From a virus (taxonomy: Duplodnaviria; Caudoviricetes): a stretch of DNA of 64,000 nucleotides. The notes under the pieces are model-generated. The model searched no databases. It saw only the letters and a program-made list of their open reading frames with translations, and was not told the origin of the DNA. The stretch is taken from the IMG/VR virus record IMGVR_UViG_3300021400_001698, positions 1-64,000 of that record. One strand, written 5' to 3'. The position numbers and the translations under genes were made by a program. Below, in pieces: positions 940-25,244 of this stretch (position 1 is the stretch's first letter; each line of letters begins with the position of its first letter).

Positions 940-1016
940 GACTTATGCCTACGGGCGCCGCGAGATTGGCTCGCCAGGGTAGGGTTCGAATCCCTAGGGG
1001 TCCATAGGCATAAGTC
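940..1016 (+). ncRNA. tRNA-like RNA: acceptor + T-arm + one short hairpin, on a 12-bp perfect stem extension
   Basis: GACTTATGCCTA(940-951)/TAGGCATAAGTC(1005-1016); T-arm TAGGG-TTCGAAT-CCCTA (980-996); hairpin GCGAG-ATTGG-CTCGC. Confidence 0.6.
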
Positions 1017-1270: not shown

Positions 1271-1361
1271 GTGGGCAAGGGTTGTCCCGCAAGTAAGATA
1301 TAAGTTCGATTCTTATCACCGTAGAGGTTCGACTCCTCTATATGTTGGCACTAAAACTTGC
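1271..1361 (+). ncRNA. double-T-arm RNA (two tandem TpsiC hairpins in a closing stem)
   Basis: ATAAG-TTCGATT-CTTAT (1300-1316) and TAGAGG-TTCGACT-CCTCTA (1322-1340) enclosed by GCAAGT(1289)/ACTTGC(1356). Confidence 0.55.
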
Positions 1362-4895: not shown

Positions 4896-5083
4896 TGTCG
4901 ATATATGATACATTAAACAGATTAAAAGAACAGTGGGAGCGCGTACCGGAGTGGCGCCTTATGCAGTTAATTGTAAATTTTCAATCATATATTAGAAGTG
5001 ATGGCTTCTATATTTCAAATGAAGATTTAATTGAACGATTAGAAATTTATCTTAACGATATATTAAATGTAGAAGAAGAGTAA
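4895..5083 (+). CDS. small protein, DUF1040/YihD-like
   Basis: W-x3-P-E-W-R-L-M-Q-L motif resembles this family; translational coupling. Confidence 0.55.
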   Translation: MSIYDTLNRLKEQWERVPEWRLMQLIVNFQSYIRSDGFYISNEDLIERLEIYLNDILNVEEE

Positions 5084-5116
5084 AATGGAGAATCCTATAG
5101 AATAGGGGTAATTTAA

Positions 5117-5584
5117 ATGACTGATTTTGTTCTTTTATGCGCGGTTCCGGGCGCAGGCAAAACATATTTTGGAAAAGTAGCAGAGGAGTCTGGCGAGTAT
5201 AAGCTCGTTTCCTCAGATGACATACGTGAAGCTCTGTGGGGAGACGCAAGCATTCAGAAGAATCCAAAAAGAGTCTTTTCCGAAATGGAGGCCCGCACTA
5301 TTGCGAACTTACAGAAAGGTTATAGCGTAATTTATGACGCAACTAATATAAAAAGAAAGGATAGGCTTTCAATTTTAAACAAGGTAAAAGAGTTATGTCC
5401 ATCTGTAGGAACCTATTGCTTAAGATTTGATGTACCCCTTGATGAATGTATAAGGCGGGCGGCCGCACGTGAACGGAAGGTTTCTGCGGATGTCATATAT
5501 CGTATGGCAGAAAGGTTTGAAGAGCCTGAGTATGATGAAGGCTGGGATTATATATGTACAGTAAGACCAATTAAGGAGGAATAG
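5117..5584 (+). CDS. polynucleotide kinase-like P-loop kinase (AAA_33/PNK kinase domain)
   Basis: Walker A GAGKT, SSDDIRE, YDATN, and RxxxR lid motifs. Confidence 0.85.
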   Translation: MTDFVLLCAVPGAGKTYFGKVAEESGEYKLVSSDDIREALWGDASIQKNPKRVFSEMEARTIANLQKGYSVIYDATNIKRKDRLSILNKVKELCPSVGTYCLRFDVPLDECIRRAAARERKVSADVIYRMAERFEEPEYDEGWDYICTVRPIKEE

Positions 5585-11971: not shown

Positions 11972-12307
11972 TTAAGCTCTTGTGTAGCCCTTGCACTTAC
12001 CCTTAGGACCCTTTACGTCCTGAGATACTGCAGCTCCCTGGCTTACTGCGGTTCTTGCGAGTGCGGAAGCCTTCTGAGGAGAAACCTCAAGTGCAGCTGC
12101 AATGTCAGTTGCGGTAAGCGGCTCATCGGTCAGCATCTCTACGAGCTTCTCTACGAGAGGTGCATTCTCCTGTGCTTTCTTGGAGACCTTCTCACGTCTT
12201 GCGGCGTTAGCTGCGTCCATCTTCTCGATGAGTTCCTGAGCCTTAGCGATAACTTCTTCGTTGATTGTTCCTGCTACGATTGTCTGATAAAATTCTCTCT
12301 GTGTCAT
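11972..12307 (-). CDS. winged-helix DNA-binding protein, paralogue 1
   Basis: MTQREFY start after AGAAGGA; LTATDIAAALEVSPQKASAL HTH; similar to 14782 and 18677 genes. Confidence 0.75.
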   Translation of the reverse strand: MTQREFYQTIVAGTINEEVIAKAQELIEKMDAANAARREKVSKKAQENAPLVEKLVEMLTDEPLTATDIAAALEVSPQKASALARTAVSQGAAVSQDVKGPKGKCKGYTRA

Positions 12308-12537
12308 TTTTAAATCCTTCTTTCTTGCGTAGGCCGCAACCCAGTTACGTTTGTGAATTTTTAATTTTATGAGAGAGGTTTCTTCTCTCACTTTCTATAT
12401 ATATTATAGCAGAATTTTCAGAACTTTTCAAATTTTCAGTTCTTATTTCCGCTCCGAAGATTCGAATAGATTATTTGTTTTCTTCTCTCATCTTCTATAA
12501 ATAGTATATCAAAAATTTGAAGCTTTTTCAAATTTTC

Positions 12538-12699
12538 GCAGCTCCTATAATTTTATATAAAGAAAATTTGACTTTAAAAATCAAATTTTGACGCAGCTCT
12601 CACGGGAAATAATAAAAAAATTTGACAAAAAAAGTCAAATTTCCATAGCAGCTCTATGTGCAGCTCCCAGCTCCGACGCAGCTCCTATAGGCGCAGCTC
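12538..12699. repeat. clustered GCAGCTC repeats
   Basis: GCAGCTC at 12538, 12593, 12648, 12660, 12678, 12693 and CAGCTC at 12668. Confidence 0.75.
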
Positions 12700-12910
12700 C
12701 TGGACGCGGCCACATACACATACGACACCTACGATGGCTACGGCGCTGCACCTGTGCATATTGTATACTGTATATTGTATACACAAATGGAAATTTGACT
12801 TTGTTAAAAATTTGACGAGGGCCGGCCAGTTTATACCCGGGGATCGGCCGGCCCGTGGTTTACATAATATATATATTGTAAACCCGTTGGTTGACATAAA
12901 AAAAGAGAGG

Positions 12911-13273
12911 TTAACCCTCTCTCTTCGCGGATATTTCCGCTTTGCGCTTGCGCACTTCCGCATCGCGCGCCACCTTTTTGGCTTTGCGTTCCGCGTTCTC
13001 GCGCGCCTTTTCCGCTTTGGCTTTGCACGACATCTCGTAGTCCTCCGCCATCGCGTACCCATCATATGGGGTCATACCCTTGTCCGCACCTGTGGGGACT
13101 TTAAAGGTGATAACGAGGAAGTCCTCGTTGCCCTCGCACCCTACTACAGGTAGTGCGATTTCGTTGGATTTCACGCGCAACACCTCATTATCTTGTGCGG
13201 TGAGGAATGCGGAAACGGATTCGAGGAACTGCGCGCGGATAAGTTCGCGCTCGGATTTTCTTGATACTGCCAT
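12911..13273 (-). CDS. hypothetical protein with basic C-terminal helix, paralogue of 17417-17773
   Basis: Shared VLRVKSNEIA.PVVGCEGNEDF.VIT.KVPTGADKGMTPYDGYAMAE. Confidence 0.85.
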   Translation of the reverse strand: MAVSRKSERELIRAQFLESVSAFLTAQDNEVLRVKSNEIALPVVGCEGNEDFLVITFKVPTGADKGMTPYDGYAMAEDYEMSCKAKAEKARENAERKAKKVARDAEVRKRKAEISAKREG

Positions 13274-13618
13274 ATGGAGTACCCCCTTTCTTTTATTTTC
13301 TATAGTAATTATAGCAAAATTTTACGGATTTGTCAAGGGAATTTGAAAAGTATTTTGTATACATTGGCTTTGCAATATAATAATTATGTAAACCTAATAG
13401 ATTGTAAATCGCAATTAGACGATGTGGTGGGCCGGCCCGGGACGATCTGCGGCCCGGCATCAACTATTCCGCATAAATTAATTTTAGGAATAGTTGCGGC
13501 CGAGATAAACCCATTGGATACGCAAGTTTAAACTAACTATTCCTATAAAACTAATTTTCGGAATAGTTGCACCGGATCGACCGGCCGTGAACATATGTTT
13601 GCATAAAAAAAAGACGAC

Positions 13619-13882
13619 TTAATCGTCGTCCTCTTCTTCATCATCACAATCATAAATTTTAAAGTCATTAACCTTAAGGTCATACCAATTAGTTTCAAAA
13701 GTTATTCCTACTTTTTCCCATTTTTCAATAAAGGCGTTGAGTTCTTCTACTGCTTGTTTTTTGAGTTCATATCTACGTCTTTTAAATTCTTCTTCAATAT
13801 CTTTCTGAATTTGCCGAAGGTCTTCTTCTGCAATTTCATTAAGGTTACAAGTTGACAGTTCATCAAATAATTCGTATGCCAT
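13619..13882 (-). CDS. hypothetical acidic protein
   Basis: Start moved to MAYEL after AAGGAG. Confidence 0.75.
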   Translation of the reverse strand: MAYELFDELSTCNLNEIAEEDLRQIQKDIEEEFKRRRYELKKQAVEELNAFIEKWEKVGITFETNWYDLKVNDFKIYDCDDEEEDDD

Positions 13883-13896
13883 TTTTATCTCCTTTC

Positions 13897-14094
13897 TTAA
13901 ATTATACTCCAAACGATTTCCTCAACTTCTGAAATTTCTTTTTTTGTATATTCATTATCATTGATTTCAACCGTTTCTATTTCTTCATTAAGCATTGCGG
14001 TATCAATTTCATCTATTAACTTATGAAATTTTCTAATGATTTCTTTTTCTTCGCTTGTAAATTCAACTCTCATTTGCTTGGTTATAATAGTCAT
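13897..14094 (-). CDS. hypothetical protein
   Basis: AAGGAG RBS. Confidence 0.75.
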   Translation of the reverse strand: MTIITKQMRVEFTSEEKEIIRKFHKLIDEIDTAMLNEEIETVEINDNEYTKKEISEVEEIVWSII

Positions 14095-14111
14095 TTTTTT
14101 ATCTCCTTTCT

Positions 14112-14342
14112 TTACTCTATTATATCACTTGGTTCTTCTATTGTCAAGAGATATTTTTGAAAATCTTCTATTTCATCTGTTTCAATAAGATGTTCAACAT
14201 ATACACGAGTCAATCCCTCATCAGTATAAACATTAACTTGTCCACCGCCCCACTCATATTTATCTTGCATATATTTTATAAAGGCATAACCATCTGTTTC
14301 TTTAGTTGAAAAAGTATATTTATCTGTTTTTATCATTAACAT
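14112..14342 (-). CDS. hypothetical protein
   Basis: AAGGAG RBS, own sigmaA promoter. Confidence 0.75.
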   Translation of the reverse strand: MLMIKTDKYTFSTKETDGYAFIKYMQDKYEWGGGQVNVYTDEGLTRVYVEHLIETDEIEDFQKYLLTIEEPSDIIE

Positions 14343-14396
14343 TTTTTTATCTCCTTTCTTATTACACTAATAGTATAACATATAATGCTTTAAAAG

Positions 14397-14573
14397 TCAA
14401 GAGGAATAATCAATTTTTATTCCAAATTCTTCCATTACTTGAGCAATTATCCAAATTAAATCATTTGGGGTTTCAATTATAAGTTTATTATTTTCTATTG
14501 TAAATTTTTCTTGCCACGCATTCATTACTTGAAAAGTGGTATGAGTTAAATCGTCAGTATATTTAATTGTCAT
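14397..14573 (-). CDS. hypothetical protein (58 aa, MTIKYTDDLT...)
   Basis: AAGGAG RBS and own promoter; below the ORF-track cutoff. Confidence 0.7.
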   Translation of the reverse strand: MTIKYTDDLTHTTFQVMNAWQEKFTIENNKLIIETPNDLIWIIAQVMEEFGIKIDYSS

Positions 14574-14781
14574 TTTTATCTCCTTTCTTATTACATTTAT
14601 ATTATATATTATAGGAACGAATTTGTCAACCCCTAAATTAAAAAATTTTTAACTGTTAAAAAATTCACAAGTGCGCCGGCCCGTAATTTTACTCGTCCGG
14701 CCGCGAACATACGTTCTTTGTTTGTTAATTAACAAACAAAGTAAAAGGAAAGAAAAGGACACCTTGCGGTGTCCCTATCTC

Positions 14782-15099
14782 TTAAAGGGAGTATGCGTTC
14801 TGCTCACCCTTACCCTTTACCTTTACCTTTGTAACCTTTACGCCCTCGATTCTCTTTACAAGACCGCTTACCTTCTGTGTTGAGAATCCCGTTGCGGTTG
14901 CAATCTCACTTGCAAGCATCGGAGTTTCGGTGAGTACATTTGCGATTGCGACTCTCTCGTCTGCGTGCTTGTCAACTCTCTGTTCTGCTCTCTTTGAGTT
15001 GCGTGCGTCAAGTTTCTCGATTGATTCTGTTGCGTGTGCGATAACTTCTGCGTTGATTTCTCCGTTGATAACTGCGTTGAAAAATTCTCTCTGTGTCAT
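14782..15099 (-). CDS. winged-helix DNA-binding protein, paralogue 2
   Basis: MTQREFF start; MLASEIATATGFSTQKVSGL HTH. Confidence 0.75.
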   Translation of the reverse strand: MTQREFFNAVINGEINAEVIAHATESIEKLDARNSKRAEQRVDKHADERVAIANVLTETPMLASEIATATGFSTQKVSGLVKRIEGVKVTKVKVKGKGEQNAYSL

Positions 15100-15240
15100 T
15101 TTAGACTCTCTTTCTCCCATCACTTCGGTAGTGGGCAACCAAGTTTCAATTGAGTTTGGGAGTTACTTTTCTCTCCCTTTTGTACTTTTATTATATCACC
15201 TTTTAAAAGGTTTGTCAAGAGGGTTTTAAAACTTTTTTAA

Positions 15241-15334
15241 AAGTTTTTAGTGGGACTACGTTTCATATCTACTGACCACTATTTCGATATAAAAGGTGAG
15301 GCAAGTTAACGTCTGATGCTCGACCCCTCTTGAC
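15241..15334 (-). ncRNA. promoter-driven small RNA candidate A
   Basis: TTGACA(15364-69)-17-TACAAT(15341-46); about 95 nt without RBS/ORF before the next promoter. Confidence 0.5.
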
Positions 15335-15384
15335 AATTATATTGTATCACCTTTTGGTGAATTTGTCAAGAGGTTTTCTAAAAA

Positions 15385-15468
15385 ATTTTTAGAAGTGAGA
15401 TTCGAACTCATATAATGCCGTTCAGTCAAGTCTTGCTTGCTTACTACACATCGCCATTCCCTCTTGAC
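15385..15468 (-). ncRNA. promoter-driven small RNA candidate B with T-arm
   Basis: TTGACA(15498-503)-17-TACAAT(15475-80); contains TGAG-TTCGAAT-CTCA. Confidence 0.55.
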
Positions 15469-15522
15469 AATTATATTGTATCACATTTCTGTGGTACTGT
15501 CAAGTACTTTTTTAAAAAGTTT

Positions 15523-15609
15523 AGAGAGAATTTGGATTTGAACCATCGGTGGCCACTTTATTGACTCGAACAATCGCCCTACCTTTTAGGGATTCTCTCT
15601 TCACTTTCT
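15523..15609 (-). ncRNA. promoter-driven small RNA candidate C, double-T-arm tRNA mimic
   Basis: TTGACT(15639-44)-17-TATAAT; 9-bp closing stem AGAGAGAAT/ATTCTCTCT enclosing CCCTA/TAGGG hairpin, ATTG-TTCGAGT-CAAT and TGG-TTCAAAT-CCA. Confidence 0.65.
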
Positions 15610-15734
15610 ATATATATTATAATCGAATTTTATAAAAAAGTCAAGATTTATTTTTCAAGTATATTGTATACATTACTTTTATACTTTACTACGCGAAAGC
15701 GCGGCCGGCCAAAGTGAACCGATTTCGGTTCACC

Positions 15735-16115
15735 TTACCAACCGAAGAACTTGGAAAATTCTTCATCGAGAAGTGGAGCAAGTCCAAACATAAACTTTTT
15801 TTGTCCATTCTCTGCAGTGTAACTGACAAGAAACTTCTTGTAGACACACCAATTTATTTCTTGCTCATACTCTGCCCCAAAGTGTTCTTTAAGTTCTGCG
15901 AGGGTGAAACTGTTGCCATAGGTGGGACAATAGTTTGCCCAATCGAGAATTTGATAACACTTGAAATGTGAGGGAGAAAGAGTCTTTTTTGCTACCCACA
16001 TTTTAAGTCTGCGCTCAAGTGGGTCTGTTAGTGTATACCAAAGTTGACAAAAGAAGTTGCGGATTGATTCGATTGTTGATTCGAAAAAAAATTCAAGATT
16101 GTCTATTACTGTCAT
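15735..16115 (-). CDS. hypothetical protein
   Basis: AAGGAG RBS, own promoter. Confidence 0.75.
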   Translation of the reverse strand: MTVIDNLEFFFESTIESIRNFFCQLWYTLTDPLERRLKMWVAKKTLSPSHFKCYQILDWANYCPTYGNSFTLAELKEHFGAEYEQEINWCVYKKFLVSYTAENGQKKFMFGLAPLLDEEFSKFFGW

Positions 16116-16255
16116 TGTATTATCTCCTTTCTTATTACACTATTAGTATACACCATTAAAATGAATTTGTCAACCCCAAATTAAAAAAAATTTTTACTTT
16201 AATACTTTAATTCATTGGAGTGCGGCCGGGCGAGATTGTGAAGTTAATCACAATC

Positions 16256-16456
16256 TCAACCATTCGTATCCCACCATTCTTCAAAATCAGGGTTCAATTC
16301 AACTTCTTCAATATCAAATTCATCATTCTGTAAATATTCTTCGCTGACTTCAAAAAGTTGAATACTTACTTTATTAGCAAACTCTATTGCCTTTTTTCGA
16401 GTGTCAAATAATGCTACACCGCCACCTAAATATTCTCTAAATAAATAATACTTCAT
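16256..16456 (-). CDS. hypothetical protein
   Basis: AAGGAG RBS, own promoter and terminator. Confidence 0.75.
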   Translation of the reverse strand: MKYYLFREYLGGGVALFDTRKKAIEFANKVSIQLFEVSEEYLQNDEFDIEEVELNPDFEEWWDTNG

Positions 16457-16598
16457 TTTTTATCTCCTTTCGTTTTCTGTATCTAAAGTATATCATATTA
16501 TAACCTATTTGTCAACCCCTAATTTAAAAGTTAAATAATTAACAATTACGCCCGGCCGCGCATAAATATACATCGCAATGTATAAACAAAGATGTGTC

Positions 16599-17243
16599 TT
16601 ACCACATCTTTGTTTCAAAGTTAGCACCACCTAACTCCCTACACTTCATTAAAATTTTGTATTCAATTTCACAATCTGCAAGTGCCGTGTGTTCCTCTGT
16701 GAAATTTTTATCAAAGAAATACTGTGCGACAATTTCTGCGGTGTATCTGTTTGCGTTTCTCTGTGTGAGATAGTTATTTACTTCACAAAATTTTCTGTAT
16801 TCACTTTCACACTTTAAAGTGTAACGAGAGAGAGCAAGTATATCGTGAAATTCTGTACCATAGGGGAAGAAATATCTATATTTAGATTTCGTTAAATATC
16901 TTTCGGTTGTTGCGGTTGAGATATAATCAAATCTGCAATTATATGCAAAAACTTTTGTTATCTCATTTTCTTTCATTATATGGCGAAGAGTCCATTTTAT
17001 ATTTTTAAAACTTGTAAGTGTCCTTTCGCCTTTCTTTATCTGTTCCCAATAGGTGGGAATTTTTTCTTTAAAATATGCGCTTTCCATTAACTCTTTATTA
17101 CAGAATACGTCTGCATTTACAAAAGAATGTTTTGAGTAAATATTGCCCTCAAAATCTGCAACGATAAAACCTATATCGTAACAAATAGGGTCATCAAGTG
17201 AATTTGTGGTTTCGGTATCTAATACTATAATTTTTTCTGTCAT
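16599..17243 (-). CDS. DEDDh 3'-5' exonuclease (DnaQ-like)
   Basis: LDTETT ExoI, YNCRFD ExoII, HTALAD ExoIII motifs. Confidence 0.88.
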   Translation of the reverse strand: MTEKIIVLDTETTNSLDDPICYDIGFIVADFEGNIYSKHSFVNADVFCNKELMESAYFKEKIPTYWEQIKKGERTLTSFKNIKWTLRHIMKENEITKVFAYNCRFDYISTATTERYLTKSKYRYFFPYGTEFHDILALSRYTLKCESEYRKFCEVNNYLTQRNANRYTAEIVAQYFFDKNFTEEHTALADCEIEYKILMKCRELGGANFETKMW

Positions 17244-17416
17244 CGTGTTTTGTCCTTTCGTTTTTCTGTAATTATATTATATCACATATATAGGAAAAGT
17301 CAAGCAAAATTTCGAAAAAATTTTTATACAATTTTAGGAATAATTATACGACGCGCCGGCCTTGTTTGTTAATTAACTAACAATTTTCCGAAATAAAAAA
17401 GTGAGTCATTTCTGAC

Positions 17417-17773
17417 TCACTCTCCCTTTTCTGCAATTTCCTTTTTCTTTCTGCGAATTTCCTCATCACGCTTGATTTTTTTTGCTTTCTTTTCGGCACT
17501 TGCCTTTGCCTTTTCTTCTTTCTCTTTCAGTTTCATTTCATATTCTTCTGCCATCGCATAACCATCGTAAGGAGTCATACCCTTATCTGCACCCGTTGGC
17601 ACCTTTACAGTAATTACGATAAAATCTTCGTTACCTTCACAACCCACAACGGGAAATGCAATCTCATTTGATTTGACCCTTAAAACTTCTTCAGTTTCGG
17701 CAAGTGTTTCGATTAACTTTGTTAAATAATTTTCTTTCAGTAATTCTCTTTCAACTTTTCTTGATACTCCCAT
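17417..17773 (-). CDS. hypothetical protein, paralogue of 12911-13273
   Basis: Long identical peptide stretches. Confidence 0.85.
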   Translation of the reverse strand: MGVSRKVERELLKENYLTKLIETLAETEEVLRVKSNEIAFPVVGCEGNEDFIVITVKVPTGADKGMTPYDGYAMAEEYEMKLKEKEEKAKASAEKKAKKIKRDEEIRRKKKEIAEKGE

Positions 17774-17995
17774 TCTGTGTATCTCCTTTCTTTATCTTAT
17801 ACCTTATTATAACATTTCAATCAATTTTTGTCAAGAGAAAATTCAAAACTTTTTTGGATTTTTAAATTTTCTTTTTTCATTTTCTATATATATTATAACA
17901 AAAATTTTAAAATTTGTCAAGTTTTAATTTGTAAGAATACTGTATACATTTCTTTAATTGTTTAACACTTTAATTCGCTAAAGTGCGCCCGGCCG

Positions 17996-18009
17996 CGAAC
18001 ATATGTTCG
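17996..18009. promoter_or_regulatory. Gram-positive SOS (LexA) box; one of nine copies at 13.6-25.0 kb
   Basis: CGAACATATGTTCG matches CGAAC-N4-GTTCG. Confidence 0.75.
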
Positions 18010-18039
18010 TATAAAAAAAGTTGTGAAATAAATCACAAC

Positions 18040-18210
18040 TTAATCTCCTATTATTTCGGGACTTAAATCCACCCAATCATTATAAATTTCAAGAATTTCA
18101 ACCTCATCTTTATCAAAAGTGCCACCACAACACCCACATATAATAGTATTATCGTCAGTCAGAATACCACCAAAAACTGCTTCAACATCTCTAAACTTAA
18201 TCTGCTTCAT
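18040..18210 (-). CDS. small zinc-binding protein (ICGCCGG)
   Basis: Start MKQIKF after AAGGAG. Confidence 0.7.
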   Translation of the reverse strand: MKQIKFRDVEAVFGGILTDDNTIICGCCGGTFDKDEVEILEIYNDWVDLSPEIIGD

Positions 18211-18226
18211 TTTTAAATCTCCTTTC

Positions 18227-18484
18227 TTATGAGTGAATGCCACCCAAAACCTTAATTAAAATTAAACCTGTTGTAATTCCTAACATACAGAAATCCTTTA
18301 CCTTATCTGCCATTGGTCTTTTTAATACAAAACATCTTACAACTGCAAGTACATTTGCACTAAAGTATATAAACTGTCCTACAAAAAAGTTACTACCAAC
18401 TGTACATTGTGCAGTAATTAACAAAGTCAAAACTAAATAGTTCGCAAGTTCAAAACCCTTTTCTATCTTTTCTCTAACTGTCAT
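18227..18484 (-). CDS. small membrane protein (3 TM)
   Basis: Hydrophobic segments; GAGGT RBS; own promoter. Confidence 0.75.
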   Translation of the reverse strand: MTVREKIEKGFELANYLVLTLLITAQCTVGSNFFVGQFIYFSANVLAVVRCFVLKRPMADKVKDFCMLGITTGLILIKVLGGIHS

Positions 18485-18676
18485 TCACTTTACCTCTCTT
18501 TCTTATCTCTTTGTACCTTAATTATACTCTATAAATCCTATCTTGTCAACCCCTTTTTTAAAAAAATATTTTAACTTTTACAATTTAGTGTGCGAAAGTG
18601 TGCCGGCCGCGGTCGTTTGTTAATTAACAAACAAAGTACCCTAAAAAGAAAAGGGTACTTGCGTACCCTTTATGCC

Positions 18677-19018
18677 CTATGCGAGAGTATATGCAACCCT
18701 CTTGCCAACCTTAGGCAACTTCACTTCGGAAGCCACTACCTTTCCTTCCTTTGCTAACTGTCCACAAAGGGAAGATGCCTTTGCGGTAGTGATACCAACC
18801 GCTTCACCTATCTCCTTTGCGATGTGAGTTTCTCCGTTGGCGAGGAACTCGAGGATAGAAGCCTTAATAGGCTCGTTGGCGAGTGCTACCTTTGAGGGTC
18901 TTGAAGCCCTATTAGCATTACGAGTGTCGAGCTTTGTGATTTCTTCCGTAGCCTTTGCTACTACCTCTTCGGTGATTTCTCCATTAACGATTGCGGTGTA
19001 GAATTCTCTGTAAGTCAT
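18677..19018 (-). CDS. winged-helix DNA-binding protein, paralogue 3
   Basis: MTYREFY; IAKEIGEAVGITTAKASSL HTH. Confidence 0.78.
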   Translation of the reverse strand: MTYREFYTAIVNGEITEEVVAKATEEITKLDTRNANRASRPSKVALANEPIKASILEFLANGETHIAKEIGEAVGITTAKASSLCGQLAKEGKVVASEVKLPKVGKRVAYTLA

Positions 19019-19399
19019 TTTAAGTTCCTTTCTTGCGTAGGTCGCAACCCTCTTTTACTTTTGGGAGTTTCTGTCTCCCTCTCTCATCTTACATTTAGAT
19101 TATAGCATATTTTTTTAGGTTTGTCAAGAGTTTTTTTAAACTTTTTTTAATTTTTTTCGTCTTTGGAAGTGGTCATTTCCATCTGCCAAAACCGAATTTT
19201 TATTTTCTTGACCTTTTGTAATTATATTATATATGAATTTTATTAATTTGTCAACTACTTTTTTCAATGTATATTGTATACATTACTTCAATGCTTTAAC
19301 GTGTGAAAGCGCGGGCCGGCCGAAGCGAACATATGTTCTTTTTAATCTAATAAAAAAATTGGCTTCTGTTCCCAAGTGCCAATTAACTCGGAGTCTTGC

Positions 19400-19618
19400 T
19401 CACCAGTGAGGGCGAACTCCCCAATAATCCTTGTGGAGGTCAGAGTAAATCTGCCAGTCCATAGGGTCATCGGTTTCCTCTGCAATCTTCAGAGCCTTCT
19501 GAAGGTTTTCCCAACATCTACGCTCTTCAGCGATTTCTTCGAAATCTGCGAGGATTCTGTTGCCAGTCTTTTCAGAGAGCCAACATTCGCACCCTGCGAT
19601 TATGTACTTGTAAAGCAC
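19400..19618 (-). CDS. hypothetical protein (GTG start)
   Basis: GGAGG RBS before GTG 19618; the ORF-track N-terminus overlaps the promoter. Confidence 0.65.
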   Translation of the reverse strand: MLYKYIIAGCECWLSEKTGNRILADFEEIAEERRCWENLQKALKIAEETDDPMDWQIYSDLHKDYWGVRPHW

Positions 19619-19835
19619 TAGGTAAGTCCTCCTTTCCTTGTTCTTTTGTACTTTTATTATAGCACCCTTTAGGTAGTTTGTCAACCCATTTTAAAAAATT
19701 TTTTTAACTTTTTTCTTTAACGCTTTAACGTACTAAAGTGCGGCCGGCTTACTTTAATACTTTAATTCGTTAAAGTCTACCCGGCCGCGATTGTTAAGTT
19801 ATTAACTTAACAAATTGAGTTCAATAAAAAAGGGA

Positions 19836-20282
19836 TTAATTTAATCCCTTTAATATCTCGATGATATTGTCAACATCATATGCAGTACCTATCCAATTTT
19901 CTCTGTTTGCGATTTCGTCATCGAATAAAATTCCATTCGGGAAATTTACCACCATTTCCTTCGGTGTGCCATATTCGGTGATGATAATTTCGTCAAACTT
20001 TACACTTGCAAGGTGAACGGTTAACCATTCCATTTTTGCATTTATAACCTTTGCGTTGTATTCGGTTGTACCATTCTTTGCTAACCACGATACAATGCCG
20101 ATTATATAACCATTTGCCTGAAGTCTGTTGAGAAGTCTTGCAAGTACATTTAACTTTACAAGAGGGGTTGCGTCTGTGTAAGGGCTTGCGTCCTCGTTCT
20201 GTAACTTTGTTAACCAATTATTTACACCGTAGAGGTTGGCGAGTGTGCCGTCCATATCGAAATATATTGCCTTGTTCATCAT
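19836..20282 (-). CDS. HAD-family phosphatase, 5'(3')-deoxyribonucleotidase-like, paralogue 1
   Basis: YFDMDGT motif I, LFDD motif IV. Confidence 0.82.
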   Translation of the reverse strand: MMNKAIYFDMDGTLANLYGVNNWLTKLQNEDASPYTDATPLVKLNVLARLLNRLQANGYIIGIVSWLAKNGTTEYNAKVINAKMEWLTVHLASVKFDEIIITEYGTPKEMVVNFPNGILFDDEIANRENWIGTAYDVDNIIEILKGLN

Positions 20283-20442
20283 TTTATTTACCTCTCTTTC
20301 TCTATATATAATATAGCATACTTTAAGAAATTTGTCAACCCCTGGGAAAAATTTTTTTCTATTGTATATCGGTATTAGACGATTTGGGTGGCCGGCCGCG
20401 AACATATGTTCATATAAAAAAATGTGCATAATCGCACATTTT

Positions 20443-20991
20443 TTACCAATCCTTTAAACATTCTTTTACGTGTTTGTCAAGTAAATATTCTGTGTAAAAT
20501 CTGTTTACTTGTGGTTCTGTAGTAATGGTTGCGTTCCAAAACTTAACTTGAATATGTTCCCCATTTACTACCACATCTCCGCACTCTGTACACTTTGCGG
20601 ACTTGTTTTCGTTCTGTGTTCCGTTGGTGTACTGTGCAAACATATCTTCGAAAAGGTTTCCACGGTTTCCCTTGTATCCATTTTCTCTCTGTTCTGTATA
20701 GAGTCTTTCAAACTCTTTTACTGAACACATCGGAATTATTTCCCTTGCGTATTCCTTAAGGATTGCAAATACTTCCATTTTGTTGTTCATTCTTACTCCC
20801 CAAACTGAACCGTGGCTTGCAGAATTTCTTTCGCAATAGGTTACAAGAGGAAGAACCTCATCGGCATTTTCTACGATAACGGCCTTGACCATTTTCTCGT
20901 CACGGATTGCAAATGCATATGTATTGGTATATTCAACTTTTGCCAGTCTTTCAAGAATTGTCATTTTTATTTCTTCGTTTGAGTTTCTCAT
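20443..20991 (-). CDS. PD-(D/E)XK-like protein, paralogue of 24144-24623
   Basis: NRGNLFE...GDVVVNGEHIQVKFWNATITTE. Confidence 0.6.
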   Translation of the reverse strand: MRNSNEEIKMTILERLAKVEYTNTYAFAIRDEKMVKAVIVENADEVLPLVTYCERNSASHGSVWGVRMNNKMEVFAILKEYAREIIPMCSVKEFERLYTEQRENGYKGNRGNLFEDMFAQYTNGTQNENKSAKCTECGDVVVNGEHIQVKFWNATITTEPQVNRFYTEYLLDKHVKECLKDW

Positions 20992-21259
20992 TTTTGTGTT
21001 CCTTTCTTTTTCTTTCCCTTCTGTGATTATATAATAACATATAACTGGCAAAATGTCAACCCCTAAATGAAAAAAGTTTAAAAAATTTTTTGGCACACTT
21101 CTTGCAAGGGGTGGCGGCCGGCCGAAACTTTAACGCTTTAGTGCGCGAAAGCGTCGATTGCACCCTCGGTGTTTGCGTCCTTGGTGTCCACTCCACTTCC
21201 CTTTCTCTATATATATAATAACATAGAAAAAGGACTTTGTCAAGTCCTTTTTTAAAAAT

Positions 21260-21475
21260 TTAGTGATGTAAAATTACTTCATATGAACACGTATTCGGTT
21301 CATTCAAATATACTTCTTCGAAACAACAAGGACAAAAGCACCCACGACTAATAAATTTACCATATGTTTTAAACATTTCTTCTTCTTCTGCGATAAAAAC
21401 ACATTCACACTTTTTACACATAATTCTATAAGAAGTTTTGACACTTAAATCTCTACCCATTGTAATTATCTTCAT
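21260..21475 (-). CDS. small zinc-ribbon protein
   Basis: CKKC...CPCC; AAGGAG RBS. Confidence 0.75.
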   Translation of the reverse strand: MKIITMGRDLSVKTSYRIMCKKCECVFIAEEEEMFKTYGKFISRGCFCPCCFEEVYLNEPNTCSYEVILHH

Positions 21476-21493
21476 TTTTTTTATCTCCTTTCT

Positions 21494-21655
21494 TTATGTA
21501 AATATCATTATTATTACTGATAATATTATGTAACAAATACTTATTATTATTCGTATAATGTAAGATATATTGATTTCTTGATATATACTTAATGTTACAT
21601 ACCACCAAGACAATATTGCTATACCTAAAATTGCCATTATTGATAAAATTATCAT
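21494..21655 (-). CDS. small membrane protein (53 aa)
   Basis: Start MIILS after GAGGT; the longer ORF-track version runs through promoter and repeats. Confidence 0.65.
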   Translation of the reverse strand: MIILSIMAILGIAILSWWYVTLSIYQEINISYIIRIIISICYIILSVIIMIFT

Positions 21656-21881
21656 TTTATTTACCTCTCTTTCTTTATCTATAATATACCATATATGAAG
21701 AGGAAAGTCAACCCCTAAATTAAAATTTTTTCGTACAAGTGCGCGCGGTCGTCCGTGTCCGTGCAATGACTCTGTTAAATCCTTAACAAGGACGGCCGGC
21801 CGCGAACATATGTTCGTTTTGTAATTAGAAAAAAGGCACAAGCAAGACTTGTGCCAATTTTCAAAGAAAAGGAGGTAAACA

Positions 21882-22031
21882 CTATAAAAACAATTTAAAG
21901 AGATTCCAATTTGATAAAACCGTTTCACTTTCAAAGTCTAAATTCTGTGAAGTGATTTCAATATAGGAAACTATGCCCCAAAGAATAAGTAATACCGATA
22001 TAACTATTATAATATTTCTAAAAATCTTCAT
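21882..22031 (-). CDS. small membrane protein (49 aa, MKIFRNIII...)
   Basis: AAAGGA RBS; hydrophobic N-terminal helix. Confidence 0.6.
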   Translation of the reverse strand: MKIFRNIIIVISVLLILWGIVSYIEITSQNLDFESETVLSNWNLFKLFL

Positions 22032-22063
22032 TTTCTTAATTCCTTTCTTTATCTCTTCTGTGA

Positions 22064-22255
22064 TTATATAATACCATACTTTTTAAAGTCTGTCAAGTCT
22101 TTTTCAAACTTTTGTTCAACTTTTTTTCTATTATATAACCGATTTCCTTCACAATAAGGACAAGACCCGTGATTTCTGCAAGTGTAATCAATTGCCTTTG
22201 ACCCGTAAAATGGTTTTCTATGTTCTTTTCCATTCTTAATCGCTTTATCTAACAT
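22064..22255 (-). CDS. small Cys/His phage protein (CRNHGSCPYC)
   Basis: Start MLDKAI after AAGGAG; own promoter. Confidence 0.72.
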   Translation of the reverse strand: MLDKAIKNGKEHRKPFYGSKAIDYTCRNHGSCPYCEGNRLYNRKKVEQKFEKDLTDFKKYGII

Positions 22256-22383
22256 TTTTCTTATCTCCTTTTCTATATATATTATACTATAACCAAAACG
22301 GGAAGTCAAGTGTTAATTTTTTAACAAGGGGTCGGCCGGCTGTGAATTTTTATACATTTCTATGTATATTTAAAAGGCACTTC

Positions 22384-22824
22384 TTAAAGTGCCTTTAAAA
22401 CTGTAAGGATTTCGGTTTCGTCAAAAGCCTTGCCTATCCAATTTTCTCTATTCTGAATTTCATCATCGAATAAAATTCCGTTTGGGAAGTTCACAACTTC
22501 TTCTTTTGGTGTTCCGTAAGGAACGATATTTATTTCATCGAATTTCACGCTTGCAAGGTGGGAATTTAACCAATTTGTCTTTGCCTTTGCAACTTCTATA
22601 TCATAATTTTCGGAAGAATTTTTTGCTAACCAACTAACAATGCCGATGACCCAACCCTTTTTCTGTAAATTATTGAGAAGTCTTGCAAGTACATTCAGTT
22701 TAAGGAGAGGAAGTGCCTCGATGTATAAACTTGCATCTTCATTTATAATTTTTTCTAACCAATTTTCAACTCCATAAAGGTTTGCGATTGTTCCGTCCAT
22801 ATCGAAGTAAATTGCCTTTGTCAT
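22384..22824 (-). CDS. HAD-family phosphatase, 5'(3')-deoxyribonucleotidase-like, paralogue 2
   Basis: YFDMDGT and LFDD; highly similar to 19836-20282. Confidence 0.82.
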   Translation of the reverse strand: MTKAIYFDMDGTIANLYGVENWLEKIINEDASLYIEALPLLKLNVLARLLNNLQKKGWVIGIVSWLAKNSSENYDIEVAKAKTNWLNSHLASVKFDEINIVPYGTPKEEVVNFPNGILFDDEIQNRENWIGKAFDETEILTVLKAL

Positions 22825-23117
22825 TTTATTTTCTCCTTTTCTCTTTTTCTATAATTATTATATACTTATTTTGAAAATTTGTCAATGGTTTTAGGAAAAT
22901 TTTTTATACAATTTTTTGAATAAAAATTGAAGAGGAAAACTTTTACGAAATAAACTTCAGAACTTTAATGTGTGAAAGCGCGGGCCGGCCAAAATTTTAA
23001 GACTTTAATTTACTAAACTTTAGAACTTTAACGCGTGAAATTACGGCCGGCCGCACCTATAAGTTTGTTAATTAACAAACAAGTTGATCGAGTCAAAAGA
23101 AAAACACCTTTCGGTGT

Positions 23118-23402
23118 TTAATCTTCTTTATGGAAGTAATCGCGTGTAATCCTTTCGAAAACTTCATCTGCGGTCATCCAACCCTTGACGTCATCGACCT
23201 CTTTTTCTTCTTCTGTAAGAAGTCCCTTTATCTCAAGGAGTCCGTCCTGATGTCCGTATGATACGTCATTGCAAATGACTGAACAAATGCAATTGTCGTG
23301 ATTGGGATATTCAAGATGTAAACCGCCAAGATGTTCTGTCATCTCGTAAGGAACGAGAACGCAAGCAAGCATGTATCCGAGTTTATTCATTTCTGTAAAC
23401 AT
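23118..23402 (-). CDS. hypothetical protein
   Basis: GAGGT RBS; SYGHQDGLLEI motif. Confidence 0.75.
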   Translation of the reverse strand: MFTEMNKLGYMLACVLVPYEMTEHLGGLHLEYPNHDNCICSVICNDVSYGHQDGLLEIKGLLTEEEKEVDDVKGWMTADEVFERITRDYFHKED

Positions 23403-23470
23403 TGTGTGTACCTCTCTTTCATTTACTATAGTAATTATACTCCTATATAATTACTTTGTCAATACCCTTT

Positions 23471-23641
23471 TTATTCTTCTTCTTCTCCATATCCAACACC
23501 GAGAAGTATATCATACATCATCTGCTTTAACTCTCTATCCGTCATCGTCATATCCTCTGCGTAACGACCGATTAAAAGAGTATATCTGTCCTCAAACCCT
23601 CTTACATATGCAACCTTTAAAACCATATCTGTTCTTGTCAT
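23471..23641 (-). CDS. hypothetical protein (56 aa)
   Basis: GGAGG RBS, own promoter. Confidence 0.7.
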   Translation of the reverse strand: MTRTDMVLKVAYVRGFEDRYTLLIGRYAEDMTMTDRELKQMMYDILLGVGYGEEEE

Positions 23642-23862
23642 TTCTGTGTTCCTCCTTTGTCTTTATCTATATAAAGTATAACGCATATTACTCAATTTGT
23701 CAAGTAGGAAATTAAAAGTTAAATTATTAACAATCGCGGTCGGCCGAATATATTGACTTTAGTATATTAAAGTTTAGAACTTCAACGCATTAAAGCATGG
23801 CCGGCCGCGACGTGTGGAACATATGTTCGTTTTGCTTATAAAAGAAAAGGACTCTTTGAGTC

Positions 23863-24042
23863 CTATATAAGTTTTTCTTCTTTTATTCTTTTATCTCCAA
23901 GGCTTGTTATTTCCTCGACTGTTAATCCCGCCGCATAACAACGACACATCCAATCAGACATCTTTATTTCTTCATCTCTACCAAGAGTCCAATCAATATA
24001 CATTTCAATAATTTCTTCTTTGATATTTTTAAGGGCTGTCAT
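23863..24042 (-). CDS. hypothetical protein (59 aa)
   Basis: GAGGT RBS, own promoter and terminator. Confidence 0.7.
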   Translation of the reverse strand: MTALKNIKEEIIEMYIDWTLGRDEEIKMSDWMCRCYAAGLTVEEITSLGDKRIKEEKLI

Positions 24043-24143
24043 TTTCTTTACCTCTTTTCTTTTCTTATCTTAGCTTCTATCTTATTATAACATATAGCTC
24101 GTAGCTTGTCAACTACTTTCTTAACCCTACCGAGGGAAGAGGC

Positions 24144-24623
24144 TTACGCCTCTCCCATCAGCTTGTACATCTGACTCTCGGTCATGTATGTGGCTCCTTC
24201 AAACTTGAGCTGATAGCCGATACCGTCAACCTCAAGGTCGGGGCCTTCCCAGAACGGCAGATTATCCTTTTCCCAGGTCTGACCGTTTAACTCTGTTACG
24301 AACTTCTCGAATACTTCACCACGATTATAAATACAAGTGGCTACTGTTTCATCAAAGAACTCAACGGAGCAGATAGCCTGTGAATCTTTTAACAGGCTCA
24401 TCTTTTGTGCTACGGTCGGCTTAAATCTCAGGCTGTAGCCCTTGCCACGGCTGGCTTTATCTAACTTCATAAACTGAGCTATATCGTCCGAGCCGATAAC
24501 GACAGCATACACAACGCCTTTGAATGTAAAGCCTAAAATGTAGTTGTGGCAGGCATTTCTTGTTTGATAAATCTTTGACATTGTCTTAAGTAAATCTGCG
24601 TTCATAGTGTACCTCACTTTCAT
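24144..24623 (-). CDS. PD-(D/E)XK-like protein, paralogue of 20443-20991
   Basis: NRGEVFE...PDLEVDGIGYQLKFEGATYMTE. Confidence 0.6.
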   Translation of the reverse strand: MKVRYTMNADLLKTMSKIYQTRNACHNYILGFTFKGVVYAVVIGSDDIAQFMKLDKASRGKGYSLRFKPTVAQKMSLLKDSQAICSVEFFDETVATCIYNRGEVFEKFVTELNGQTWEKDNLPFWEGPDLEVDGIGYQLKFEGATYMTESQMYKLMGEA

Positions 24624-25115
24624 ACTGTAAAGTATTAAATCCTTTTCAAATTCTACCTAATTATAACGCTTTTAAAGGTATATGTCAATAGAAATCAGCA
24701 AAGTTTTTTTATTCAGTTTTATGTATATTTATACAGTCATATATATATTGTATTTATATACATACAATGTATATTTTATTGTTAGCACTCAAACATATGT
24801 TCGTTTTTATTATACTGTATATTGTATACACGATTTTATTATACTAAAGTTTTAATGCGTTAAACTTTAGAACTTCACCGTACTAAAGTGAGACGGCCTG
24901 TCCCAAGAGGGTATATCCCCGGGTGGGTTACGCGAGGTAGATTGTGAAATTTTTAACTTATCACTTATCGAATGACACTCCTTTTTTTCGAAAAAATCTC
25001 GAACATATGTTCGTAGAACATACATTTACTTGTATGGGCCGGGGATGTTTATGGGTTAACGCGTTAATACTTTAACGTGTGAAAGTATCCTCTGGAAAAT
25101 AATCTCCATGAAATC

Positions 25116-25164
25116 AAAAATCAAAACCTAAAACCCAAAAACTAAAATTCAAAACCCAAAATTT
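25116..25164 (+). repeat. seven tandem 7-bp A-tract repeats abutting a promoter
   Basis: AAAAATC AAAACCT AAAACCC AAAAACT AAAATTC AAAACCC AAAATTT. Confidence 0.75.
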
Positions 25165-25191
25165 GACAAACTCCCAAACCCATGATATAAT
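25163..25191 (+). promoter_or_regulatory. sigmaA promoter with extended -10
   Basis: TTGACA-17-TATAAT with TG at -15/-14. Confidence 0.88.
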
Positions 25192-25244
25192 ATAAGTAGA
25201 GTAAAAAATTAGAGGAGGACCAACACTTACGTTGGCTTATATAA

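Follow-up and report, generated by a model that had tools for sequence, protein, structure and literature searches.

In phage T7, three strong host-polymerase promoters (A1, A2 and A3) lie about 125-140 bp apart and read in the same direction into the first early genes; the intervals between them are not known to contain end-paired or tRNA-like RNAs and are not swapped as cassettes. In T4-type phages, promoter-early stem-loop (PeSL) cassettes consist of strong host-type early promoter modules around small variable payloads (PMC2839356; PMC4122927). Mimicry of tRNA is documented for YrlA-type Y RNAs. These non-coding molecules measure about 100 nt, pair their 5' end with their 3' end in a stem and resemble the T and D arms of tRNA in their body; some are cut by RNase P and given CCA, and some are phage-encoded (PMC4201824). 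Phages also supply tRNAs themselves, and two studies link the turnover and amplification of phage tRNA loci to immune evasion (PMC11555353; PMC13096335). Lastly, 5' stabilisers of mRNA have been described by Emory, Bouvet and Belasco (1992) and, for a phage SP82 sequence, by Hue, Cohen and Bechhofer (1995), as cited in PMC3997798.

Here we analyse a locus in the early region of an uncultured gut or rumen Caudoviricetes phage, within a 64,000-nucleotide stretch of its genome (hereafter the window); the locus has features of several of these systems. Our best reading, held tentatively at a probability of roughly 0.45, is that it consists of early end-paired structured RNA cassettes with tRNA-derived modules. 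Specifically, a promoter scan identified three near-consensus sigmaA promoters in a row on the minus strand (the strand of all features below), with -35 boxes at 15644, 15503 and 15369. P_C (15616..15644; TTGACT, 17-bp spacer, TATAAT), P_B (15475..15503; TTGACA, 17-bp spacer, TACAAT, extended -10 TG) and P_A (15341..15369; TTGACA, 17-bp spacer, TACAAT, extended -10 TG, with the palindrome TCACC-AAAA-GGTGA in the spacer) each score 11 of 12 positions, and successive promoters are 141 bp (P_C to P_B) and 134 bp (P_B to P_A) apart. Directly after them stands a fourth promoter, P_D (15190..15218; TTGACA, 17-bp spacer, TATAAT, with TG), which scores 12 of 12 positions and drives p105, a gene of 105 aa (14782..15099) whose paralogous family has three members in the window; a p105-type gene is the usual downstream neighbour of such cassette arrays in relatives. 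The inter-promoter stretches, hereafter units C, B and A after the promoter that precedes each, contain no credible gene. The initial annotation had described three minus-strand promoters of perfect spacing about 135-140 bp apart, each followed by 85-95 nt with no RBS or ORF. The promoters and their spacing hold, P_D had been missed, the stretches measure 95-115 nt, and unit B does contain a conserved initial AAGAGGG that looks like a Shine-Dalgarno sequence, and a 9-codon ORF.

The intrinsic-terminator scan detected no terminator-like site on the minus strand between 15700 and 15100, and the first terminator downstream of the array is a 9-bp stem with five G-C pairs and a T-run (14755..14776). 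Just past the stop codon of the upstream 126-aa gene, an 8-bp stem with an AAAT loop followed by TTT (15714..15733), which was read from the sequence and whose T-run falls under the threshold of the terminator scan, is likely a weak terminator shielding the array from upstream transcription. A divergent plus-strand promoter was ruled out, no -10 box being present at the correct distance. Neither p105 nor p126 matched a Pfam or PHROG family, searches of viral contigs with the two proteins returned few or zero relatives, and most contigs with p126 homologues either stop at that homologue or have ordinary genes beyond it. The INPHARED phage collection, searched with the locus and with the 12 kb around it, yielded no match.

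The units are closed by pairing between their ends. In units B and A, the first RNA bases (UUGUCAAGAGGG) are complementary to the -35 box of the next promoter and its C-rich flank. The conserved initial transcribed element of unit B (TTGTCAAGAGGG; 15459..15470) is the 5' strand of a closing stem whose 3' strand (CCTCTTGACAA; 15363..15373) overlaps the P_A -35 box, the two strands covarying across cassettes, and that of unit A (TTGTCAAGAGGGG; 15324..15336) pairs in the same way with CCCTCTTGACAA (15211..15223), which overlaps the P_D -35 box; in unit C, the 5' leader and the acceptor-like strand pair with the unit's own 3' end. With their closing stems included, units B and A fold better than shuffled sequences (z=-3.4 and -4.0, respectively; 0 of 200 shuffles as good); their bodies alone do not (z=+0.6 and -0.15). 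The element lies 4 nt past the -10 box in all cases, at the predicted start of transcription. Across about 30 unrelated cassette families, its position 9 (A or G) is matched to the T or C that directly precedes the next CTTGACA (12:1 versus 2:15, Fisher P=1.7e-5), and both variants, each with its matched partner, coexist in single genomes (L113, L076, L084 and L100). Pairing of the first transcribed nucleotides is conserved and covaries.

The C-rich flank occurs at 54-56% of the promoters that follow such a unit, versus 4% of array-first and 12% of other promoters (P=5e-25), and because it is concentrated at promoters following a unit, the inverted repeat brackets the payload rather than the promoter. 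Partners of the 5' element that are not promoters are also seen (L082, L091, unit 2 of L113 and L126-L132), and the distance between the two strands of the closing stem ranges from 11 to about 250 nt, which together favour pairing in the RNA over a site for a dimeric protein; a dimeric operator was ruled out by this variation in arm distance. Terminal inverted repeats of a MITE or transposon were rejected as well, in that target-site duplications are lacking and the 'repeat' is the -35 box. Pairing of the RNA 5' end with the next -35 region, the most conserved feature, was absent from the initial annotation, whose identical 25-nt block common to units A and B is indeed present, ahead of bodies that differ.

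Unit C (RNA body 15516..15609) contains a tRNA-shaped core (15600-15522). In this core the acceptor-like stem measures 7-9 bp, the D arm carries GG, and the arm at the 'anticodon' position resembles a T-arm (loop UUCGAGU); the variable region is irregular and includes the palindrome GUGGCCAC, and the T stem, of 3 bp, is capped by the loop UUCAAAU. The closing stem of the unit has 9 bp, its two T-loop hairpins lie at 15574-15560 and 15545-15533, and its fold has z=-2.88. The Rfam tRNA model (RF00005) scores it at 16.7 bits, under the gathering score of 29, and beside this weak match an Rfam search at E values up to 10 returned spurious matches only. Retron-like and 6S-like readings were set aside, with no reverse transcriptase gene and no model match. 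When the T-loop and acceptor end of this unit were scanned for as an exact pattern, only chance matches within coding sequence (L067-L070) were retrieved. The unit recurs in contig L125, where 105 of 106 bases are identical and the same promoter module drives it; between the two contigs, identity is 99% in unit C and 99% in the P_D promoter with its leader, but only 85% across the coding sequence of p105 and 64% across the spacer upstream. Since the two copies are practically identical, no covariation can be obtained from them, and recent transfer is possible instead of selection.

Conservation above that of the neighbouring gene is also observed for unit A, whose body (15224..15323) is 91% identical to positions 3704-3830 of contig L039, versus 68% for coding sequence, the leader being unrelated. 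Unit A includes a 9-bp hairpin (15294-15286 paired with 15269-15261) in which all four differences from L039 preserve pairing, one pair being altered on both sides. Pattern scans for this body found the L039 contig only.

The body of unit B (15374..15458) comprises an imperfect long hairpin, a canonical T-arm (TGAG-TTCGAAT-CTCA; 15410-15396) and an A/U hairpin, and is predicted to fold as a four-way junction that carries the T-arm and has no anticodon arm. It matches neither the Rfam tRNA model nor ARAGORN, and neither sequence comparison nor pattern scans found homologues. Strict T-arm hairpins occurred eight times in 2.44 Mb of reversed control sequence, so that about 0.001 would be expected in the roughly 290 nt considered, where two are seen; T-arms at the locus are thus about 1000-fold commoner than chance predicts. 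A relaxed scan for pairs of T-loop hairpins gave five versus two in reversed sequence, which is not an enrichment, and a 'double T-arm class' is represented by a small number of cases. The bodies of C, B and A are unrelated to each other in sequence. Several elements of the initial annotation therefore survive scrutiny: the T-arm of unit B, the 9-bp closed RNA with two T-loops in unit C, and the view that the tRNA-type features of both are real and non-random, given the T-arm control and the weak match to the tRNA model.

Its description of interchangeable cassettes is likewise borne out, in that promoter-driven non-coding units have their payloads swapped between fixed flanks. Among syntenic relatives, the same flanks enclose five different payload sets; some of the swapped payloads are small ORFs, others are end-paired RNAs of different sequence, and one is a tRNA-Lys-like RNA whose CCA is encoded. 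In L110-L112 and L115, it is small ORFs that stand behind the P_C-type promoter module. T-arms recur in cassette payloads (unit B of the window, L115 and, twice, L084), and some other payload families also have compensatory pairs. Further tRNA-like payloads occupy the same kind of slot in relatives. In other promoter-driven RNAs of relatives, an acceptor stem with G3:U70 and A73 is combined with a T-arm and an encoded CCA; these alanine-minihelix-like RNAs show that the phage clade makes minimal tRNA mimics.

Under our preferred reading, the four host-sigmaA early promoters are stacked in one direction, and the first three would each launch a non-coding, end-closed domain of about 100 nt. Since no terminator separates the units, the RNAs would be nested read-through transcripts continuing into p105. 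The unit boundaries coincide with neither a terminator nor a proven processing site, and the RNA ends are predicted ones. End pairing would hide the 5' terminus from 5'-end-dependent decay and delimit compact domains. Among these, unit C is tRNA-shaped, with intact elbow nucleotides and non-canonical anticodon, variable and T stems. Such domains would be recognised, and possibly excised and matured, by enzymes that act on tRNA, for instance RNase P, RNase Z, the CCA-adding enzyme or T-loop modifiers. The putative outcome of this transcription and processing would be stable tRNA-like RNAs from the very start of infection. The cassettes themselves are traded between related phages via recombination in common promoter modules.

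A serious rival, which we regard as doubtful but of appreciable weight, is that the locus is a tandem-promoter leader, in which stacked promoters drive the p105 operon hard, much like A1-A3 of T7, a 5' hairpin stabilises the read-through mRNA and the enclosed sequences are passengers. The pairing between the 5' end and the -35 region also fits this plainer account, as a 5' leader hairpin for the downstream mRNA, and the lack of a terminator between units is consistent with it. What many relatives enclose as a 'payload' is 45 nt of A-rich, unstructured sequence, immediately upstream of a second promoter that is followed by a p105-type gene. In L082, L091, L086 and L093, and in contigs L126-L132 from Lachnospiraceae, the same 5' element folds into a small hairpin right in front of an RBS and a gene. 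As a class, moreover, cassette bodies have no extra stability (mean z -0.45 versus -0.49 for random segments), and 5'-terminal stem-loops and polypurine 5' stabilisers are established stabilisers of mRNA (the 1992 and 1995 studies cited in PMC3997798). In such a leader, some of the enclosed passengers would be decayed tRNA fragments acquired by recombination. Passengers, however, would not be expected to be conserved well above adjacent coding sequence, as units C and A are, nor to change in ways that keep pairing, as the hairpin of unit A does. Two further points argue against mere passengers: T-arms occur in payloads far above chance frequency, and relatives fill such slots with entire tRNA-like RNAs whose CCA is encoded. 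In L110 and L115, the same promoter drives a small ORF at the place that unit C occupies in the window, which suggests that the slot holds an expressed payload.

A more ambitious extension of the cassette reading concerns function. We consider it unlikely that modular early-promoter cassettes, in a phage clade with genomes of about 135 kb and probable hosts among the Lachnospiraceae, supply tRNA mimics as decoys or sponges at the onset of infection, which would be an undescribed system. The RNAs would pair their 5' end with the next -35 region, and the cargo envisaged is a changing set of mimics, namely tRNA-shaped, T-arm four-way junctions, tRNA-Lys-like with CCA, and alanine-minihelix/tmRNA-like; the targets envisaged are host tRNA-targeting defence nucleases, or tRNA-processing or tRNA-binding factors. 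The hypothesis of the initial annotation that the RNAs are early decoys against tRNA-cleaving or tRNA-sensing immunity appears unlikely as well. Proteins that such decoys or sponges might occupy are anticodon nucleases such as PrrC or RloC, PARIS, effectors of retron or Septu systems, and further host factors that bind tRNA. Early consensus promoters driving tRNA-type arms that have no canonical decoding structure would suit this role, and fast payload turnover is expected of counter-defence cargo. PrrC and PARIS both target tRNA-Lys(UUU), and the L115 cassette carries a non-canonical tRNA-Lys(UUU)-like RNA. By contrast, the anticodon-like loop of unit C (CGA, Ser) fits no known nuclease target, unit B is without any anticodon arm, and the locus has no linked gene for defence or anti-defence; the RNAs show no connection with PrrC, RloC or PARIS, nor with toxin-antitoxin systems. 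Phage tRNAs do defeat retron and other tRNA-targeting defences (PMC11555353; PMC13096335), but the known cases employ functional replacement tRNAs, not mimics. The analogy with ToxI and RNA anti-CRISPRs that accompanied the decoy hypothesis fails on anatomy: type III toxin-antitoxin loci have tandem near-identical repeats beside an endoribonuclease toxin, whereas the present units are not repeats of one another and their neighbour genes are without a family match.

We judge it improbable that the locus is purely a DNA-level recombination scaffold, in which promoter modules and inverted repeats provide homology for shuffling and the intervening sequence is debris without RNA function. Mosaic breakpoints are located in the promoter modules, assemblies frequently break there, and the PeSL cassettes are a documented precedent (PMC2839356). 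Debris, however, would not hold 91-99% identity while the neighbouring gene drifts to 68-85%, and homologous recombination has no need of a match between the 5' element and its partner, of matched variants within one genome or of partners that are not promoters.

That unit C is a working but odd tRNA-Ser(CGA) aiding UCG decoding seems highly improbable. It does have a 7-bp acceptor stem (GAGAGAA pairing with UUCUCUC) and the elbow nucleotides U8, A14, a D loop with GG (AAAAGGU) and the T loop UUCAAAU. ARAGORN, negative at default settings, called tRNA-Ser(cga) only at -ps90, a setting unreliable alone, since 1.2 Mb of reversed sequence yielded 16 false calls with it (21 extra calls versus 16 in the control). 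Against decoding stand the sub-threshold Rfam score, the 3-bp T stem, an anticodon stem of 4 bp topped by a G-A mismatch, a variable region that cannot form a stem with a loop and hence is not the long variable arm of class II Ser tRNAs, and a discriminator U rather than G; unit C is, furthermore, absent from three complete relatives of 135-140 kb. Least probable of all is that the units encode micro-peptides such as the 9-codon ORF of unit B (15451-15422, with AAGAGGG, 7 nt, an ATG at 15451 and a stop codon ending at 15422), given that the predicted closing stem would sequester the bases resembling a Shine-Dalgarno sequence and that unit A and most other cassettes are without a start codon at a usable distance.

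If the end-paired RNAs are real products, as the cassette reading would have it, the locus would be a compact, easily cloned case of a phage putting tRNA-like RNAs, rather than proteins, in its strongest early slots. tRNA-like RNAs would then also be traded between genomes, and mimic-only RNAs would be added to the phage tRNAs known to replace cleaved host tRNAs. If the enclosed sequences are passengers instead, this would be an ordinary tandem-promoter leader containing tRNA debris. Regardless of payload function, a 5' end that is complementary to the next -35 box and covaries with it provides a simple rule for the origin of tandem promoter arrays, which can arise because the 3' strand of each such hairpin is a latent -35 box. 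The same pairing rule marks cassette borders in many uncultured gut and rumen phages and in Lachnospiraceae mobile elements. New here are the covarying pairing between 5' end and -35 box, the sub-threshold tRNA-shaped unit C, the swapping of payloads and the recurrence of units C and A.

Compared with described systems, the array is similar to T7 A1-A3 in its strong tandem promoters, their spacing and their reading into early genes. The features of the tmRNA tRNA-like domain or alanine minihelix (G3:U70, A73 and CCA) are found only in other RNAs of the relatives: unit C has G3-C70, has U as its discriminator and lacks CCA, the T-arm of unit B is flanked by no more than a 5-bp stem, without G3:U70, an A discriminator or CCA, and neither unit has an mRNA-like domain. 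With the phage tRNAs that counter tRNA-targeting defences, the locus shares the supply of tRNA-type molecules by the phage; those tRNAs are functional and replace cleaved host tRNAs, whereas units C and B depart from canonical tRNA structure and cannot obviously decode. The likeness to Y RNAs lies in the combination of an end stem with a tRNA-like T-arm domain, while the sequences are unrelated, no Y RNA family was matched in Rfam at E values up to 10, and no Ro60/TROVE domain was found in the 8 of 21 ORFs of at least 250 aa that were scanned, an absence that is provisional. With PeSL cassettes, the array shares repeated promoter modules in a hyperplastic early region and the insertion, loss and replacement of payloads among close relatives. 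The PeSL stem-loop, however, is a terminator beside the promoter, and PeSL payloads are ORFan genes, whereas the modules here contain no terminator stem-loop, the inverted repeat spans the payload from the RNA 5' end to the next -35 box, and the payloads in the window are non-coding. Finally, as in the described 5' stabilisers, including that of a Firmicute phage early RNA, a hairpin or a Shine-Dalgarno-like purine run stands at the extreme 5' end; by contrast with those stabilisers, the two strands of the hairpin are separated by 11 to about 250 nt, the 3' strand is often the next -35 box, and the loop can contain a structured tRNA-like domain.

On the minus strand of the window, a stack of four promoters precedes a 105-aa gene (p105; 15099-14782) and delimits three successive cassettes, units C, B and A in transcription order. 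The promoter scan recovered the trio described in the initial annotation, each at 17-bp spacing, namely P_C (15644-15616; TTGACT-17-TATAAT), P_B (15503-15475) and P_A (15369-15341), the latter two reading TTGACA-17-TACAAT with an extended -10 TG, and enlarged it by a fourth, P_D (15218-15190), which has a perfect TTGACA-17-TATAAT and lies upstream of p105. From one -35 box to the next, the distances are 141, 134 and 151 bp. The 25-nt block said to be common to B and A is present in both, and the claimed lack of RBS and ORF holds for ORFs with a plausible start, with a single exception in B, a 9-codon ORF (15451-15422) that starts 7 nt behind a conserved AAGAGGG. From a weak hairpin (15733-15714) behind the upstream 126-aa gene to the terminator that follows p105 (14776-14755), scanning of the minus strand found no terminator-like site, so the units are not terminator-bounded.

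The ends of the units are complementary. In B and A, TTGTCAAGAGGG begins 4 nt past the -10 box and is the reverse complement of CCTCTTGACAA, which comprises the next promoter's -35 box together with its flank. With these closing arms, fold z-scores are -3.4 for B and -4.0 for A; without them, the bodies fold like shuffled sequence. The '-10, ATAA, TTGTCAAGRGG' module is present in dozens of related contigs, and across 66 distinct units in 40 sequence families the A or G at position 9 of this 5' element matches the T or C preceding the next CTTGACA (12:1 and 2:15; Fisher p=1.7e-5, family level), with single genomes holding both variants, each paired with its matching partner. A C-rich flank marks 54-56% of unit-following promoters versus 4% of array-first and 12% of other promoters (p=5e-25), indicating that the inverted repeat brackets the payload rather than the promoter. 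Because the partner at several loci is a non-promoter sequence just ahead of an RBS, and because the arm-to-arm distance ranges from 11 to about 250 nt, sequence comparison favours arms that would act by RNA pairing rather than as a protein operator. Unit C is without the 5'-element motif; its 5' leader and acceptor-like strand pair with the 3' end over 9 bp plus 6 more, in agreement with the closing stem initially proposed. Pairing of transcript 5' ends with the -35 box of the next promoter appears to be an undescribed feature.

Promoters with the TTGTCAAGRGG element often have, within the spacer, a short palindrome overlapping the extended -10 (15355-15342 and 15489-15478, minus strand, and many other loci), for example TATCACA-GAAA-TGTGATA, ATCAGA-GAAA-TCTGAT or TCACC-AAAA-GGTGA. 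Such a palindrome is present in 31% of promoters with the element versus 9% of others, with GNRA centres over-represented, and could be an operator or a hairpin of read-through RNA.

Syntenic contigs, reached through proteins 74-97% identical to the upstream gene product, have nearly identical flanks with different payloads between them, bearing out the suggestion of interchangeable cassettes. The window carries C, B and A; L124 and L125 carry C and one unrelated unit, L110-L112 combine one unit with a 27-codon hydrophobic ORF placed under P_C, L113 has four units, and L115 has a 41-codon ORF and one unit. ARAGORN identifies the 3' part of this L115 unit as tRNA-Lys(ttt); the tRNA-Lys-like RNA scores 25.3 bits with Rfam and has an imperfect acceptor stem and an encoded CCA. 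Identity profiles are mosaic: against L125, identity is 64% in the upstream spacer, 97% in P_C, 99% in unit C, 99% in P_D plus leader and 85% in the p105 coding sequence, with no homologue of body B; against L039, it is 91% in P_A plus unit A and 68% in the coding sequence, the leader being unrelated. All four differences from L039 in the 9-bp hairpin of unit A preserve pairing, one of them being a two-sided change, and compensatory pairs also occur in other payload families, in small alignments. Unit C is absent from three complete relatives, and no homologue of unit B was found in any sequences searched. In L110, the closest relative, an HNH/NUMOD4 homing-endonuclease gene (1689-2258), absent from the window, is inserted between an exonuclease-like gene (922-1563) and the 126-aa gene (3001-3381). 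The homologue of the latter in L115 (442-822) matches its database protein only with TAG read as glutamine, so that some members of the clade may recode this stop codon or carry a pseudogene.

The window comes from an uncultured phage. Searches of the phage reference collection with the locus and with 12 kb around it gave no match, and complete genomes of IMG/VR relatives measure 135-140 kb. The window encodes an anaerobic ribonucleotide reductase and 12 tRNA genes (ARAGORN) located 13 kb from the cassette locus. From 12 to 26 kb, the minus strand holds small genes in series, each with its own consensus promoter, and intergenic repeats in common. An ordered element set recurs in these spacers (12000-26000), comprising GGCCGGCC-rich cores, palindromes CGAACATATGTTCG and TTGTTAATTAACAA and CTTTA-N-TAAAG motifs, with A/T palindromes immediately upstream of each -35 box; three p105-type and two p120-type paralogues lie in the same region. 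The promoter-plus-leader module is also found in genome bins of Lachnospiraceae and other Clostridia, suggesting the host group. In MAG contigs assigned to Lachnospiraceae, Dorea, Fusicatenibacter and other Clostridia (L126-L133), a 6-8 bp 5' hairpin, an RBS and a small gene come, in this order, after an identical '-10, ATAA, TTGTCAAGAGG' module, suggesting that mobile elements of this clade use the 5' hairpin as a general leader.

Units C and B carry the tRNA-type modules that had been noted. End-to-end alignment of unit C to the Rfam tRNA model scores 16.7 bits, below the gathering score of 29; the unit has a perfect 7-9 bp acceptor-like stem, U8, GG in the D loop and two T-loop-type loops. 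Unit B has a canonical T-arm (15410-15396) within a predicted four-way junction, a layout matching a cassette present twice in L084. Real loci contain 51 strict T-arm hairpins (G-TTCRANY-C, at least 4 bp) versus 8 in reversed sequence; in the ~290 nt of the locus, two were observed and about 0.001 expected, and T-arms recur in further cassettes of this type in L115 and L084.

Among the explanations considered, the best supported is an array of transcribed, end-paired cassettes. We infer that host sigmaA polymerase would fire the four promoters at the onset of infection and that the start of transcripts C, B and A would pair with the far end of its own cassette, giving closed domains with a hidden 5' end. 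C and B would display tRNA-type surfaces (acceptor-like helix, T-loop and elbow). Such surfaces are known to be recognised by RNase P, RNase Z, the CCA-adding enzyme and T-loop modifiers, so C and B would probably be cut out of the transcripts and survive as tRNA-like RNAs. In the main rival, the hairpins would stabilise the 5' end of a read-through p105 mRNA, and whatever they enclose would be a passenger: cassette bodies as a class are no stabler than random segments, many relatives have just a short A-rich loop between two promoters before a p105-type gene, and the copies of unit C are identical and hence show no covariation, with the T-arm excess and the pairing-preserving changes in unit A on the payload side. 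The initially proposed function, early decoys against tRNA-sensing or tRNA-cleaving immunity, would be compatible with the anatomy of the array; the cassette nature and tRNA-type modules of the locus hold up, and decoy function and discrete small RNAs are so far hypotheses. A working tRNA-Ser is less likely: ARAGORN makes no call on unit C by default and reports tRNA-Ser(cga) at 15600-15522 under a relaxed setting, weak evidence alone because 1.2 Mb of reversed sequence yields 16 calls at that setting. The T stem of unit C falls short of 5 bp, its anticodon stem is not clean, and it has neither a class II variable arm nor the G discriminator of Ser-tRNA. Also less likely are micro-peptides, with the 9-codon ORF of B for them and the remaining intervals against, and pure recombination scaffolds, with mosaic identity for them and, against, the higher identity of units C and A than of the p105 coding sequence and the matching of 5' elements to their partners.

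Other tRNA-like RNAs occur in the window and its relatives. RNAs of 61-119 nt in three relatives (L062:10204-10264, L060:5998-6116 and L004:4747-4826) have G3:U70 in the acceptor stem, a canonical T-arm, discriminator A (A73) and encoded CCA; the first two have their own sigmaA-type promoter, and the third lies directly 3' of a p105-family gene. The L062 RNA matches both ends of the Rfam tmRNA model at a sub-threshold 21.5 bits, and the three look like alanine minihelices, or the tRNA-like domain of tmRNA minus its mRNA part. Within the tRNA cluster of the window, a minimal tRNA-like core (940-1016, plus strand) that drew no call from ARAGORN or Rfam combines an acceptor-like stem with G-U at 3:70, one hairpin, a perfect T-arm (980-996) and an A discriminator, surrounded by a perfect 12-bp outer stem. 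The layout of unit C, a closing stem with two T-arm hairpins, recurs with unrelated sequences at 1271-1361 (plus strand) of the window, L062 (about 4385-4490) and L040 (about 5060-5215, immediately upstream of a bona fide tRNA at 5273-5346); a relaxed scan for such units found no enrichment (5 versus 2 in reversed sequence).

Compared with known systems, the array would work as promoter cassettes like the PeSLs of T4-type phages (PMC2839356), but it lacks the terminator of PeSLs and its inverted repeat has another geometry. The cassette RNAs would resemble YrlA-type Y RNAs (PMC4201824) as end-paired tRNA mimics; they had no match to Rfam Y-RNA models, and no Ro60 gene was found among the window ORFs scanned (8 of 21 large ORFs). 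They fall short of the tRNA standard of both Rfam and ARAGORN, and the suggested likeness to ToxI does not stand, as they are not ToxI-like repeats. Units C, B and A are not tmRNA-like; relatives do have promoter-driven RNAs with G3:U70, A73 and CCA. Phage tRNAs that defeat tRNA-targeting defences are already known and are functional tRNAs (PMC11555353, PMC13096335); 5'-terminal hairpins and polypurine stabilisers are classical (work cited in PMC3997798). The array combines these known kinds: promoter cassettes, 5' hairpins and tRNA mimics.
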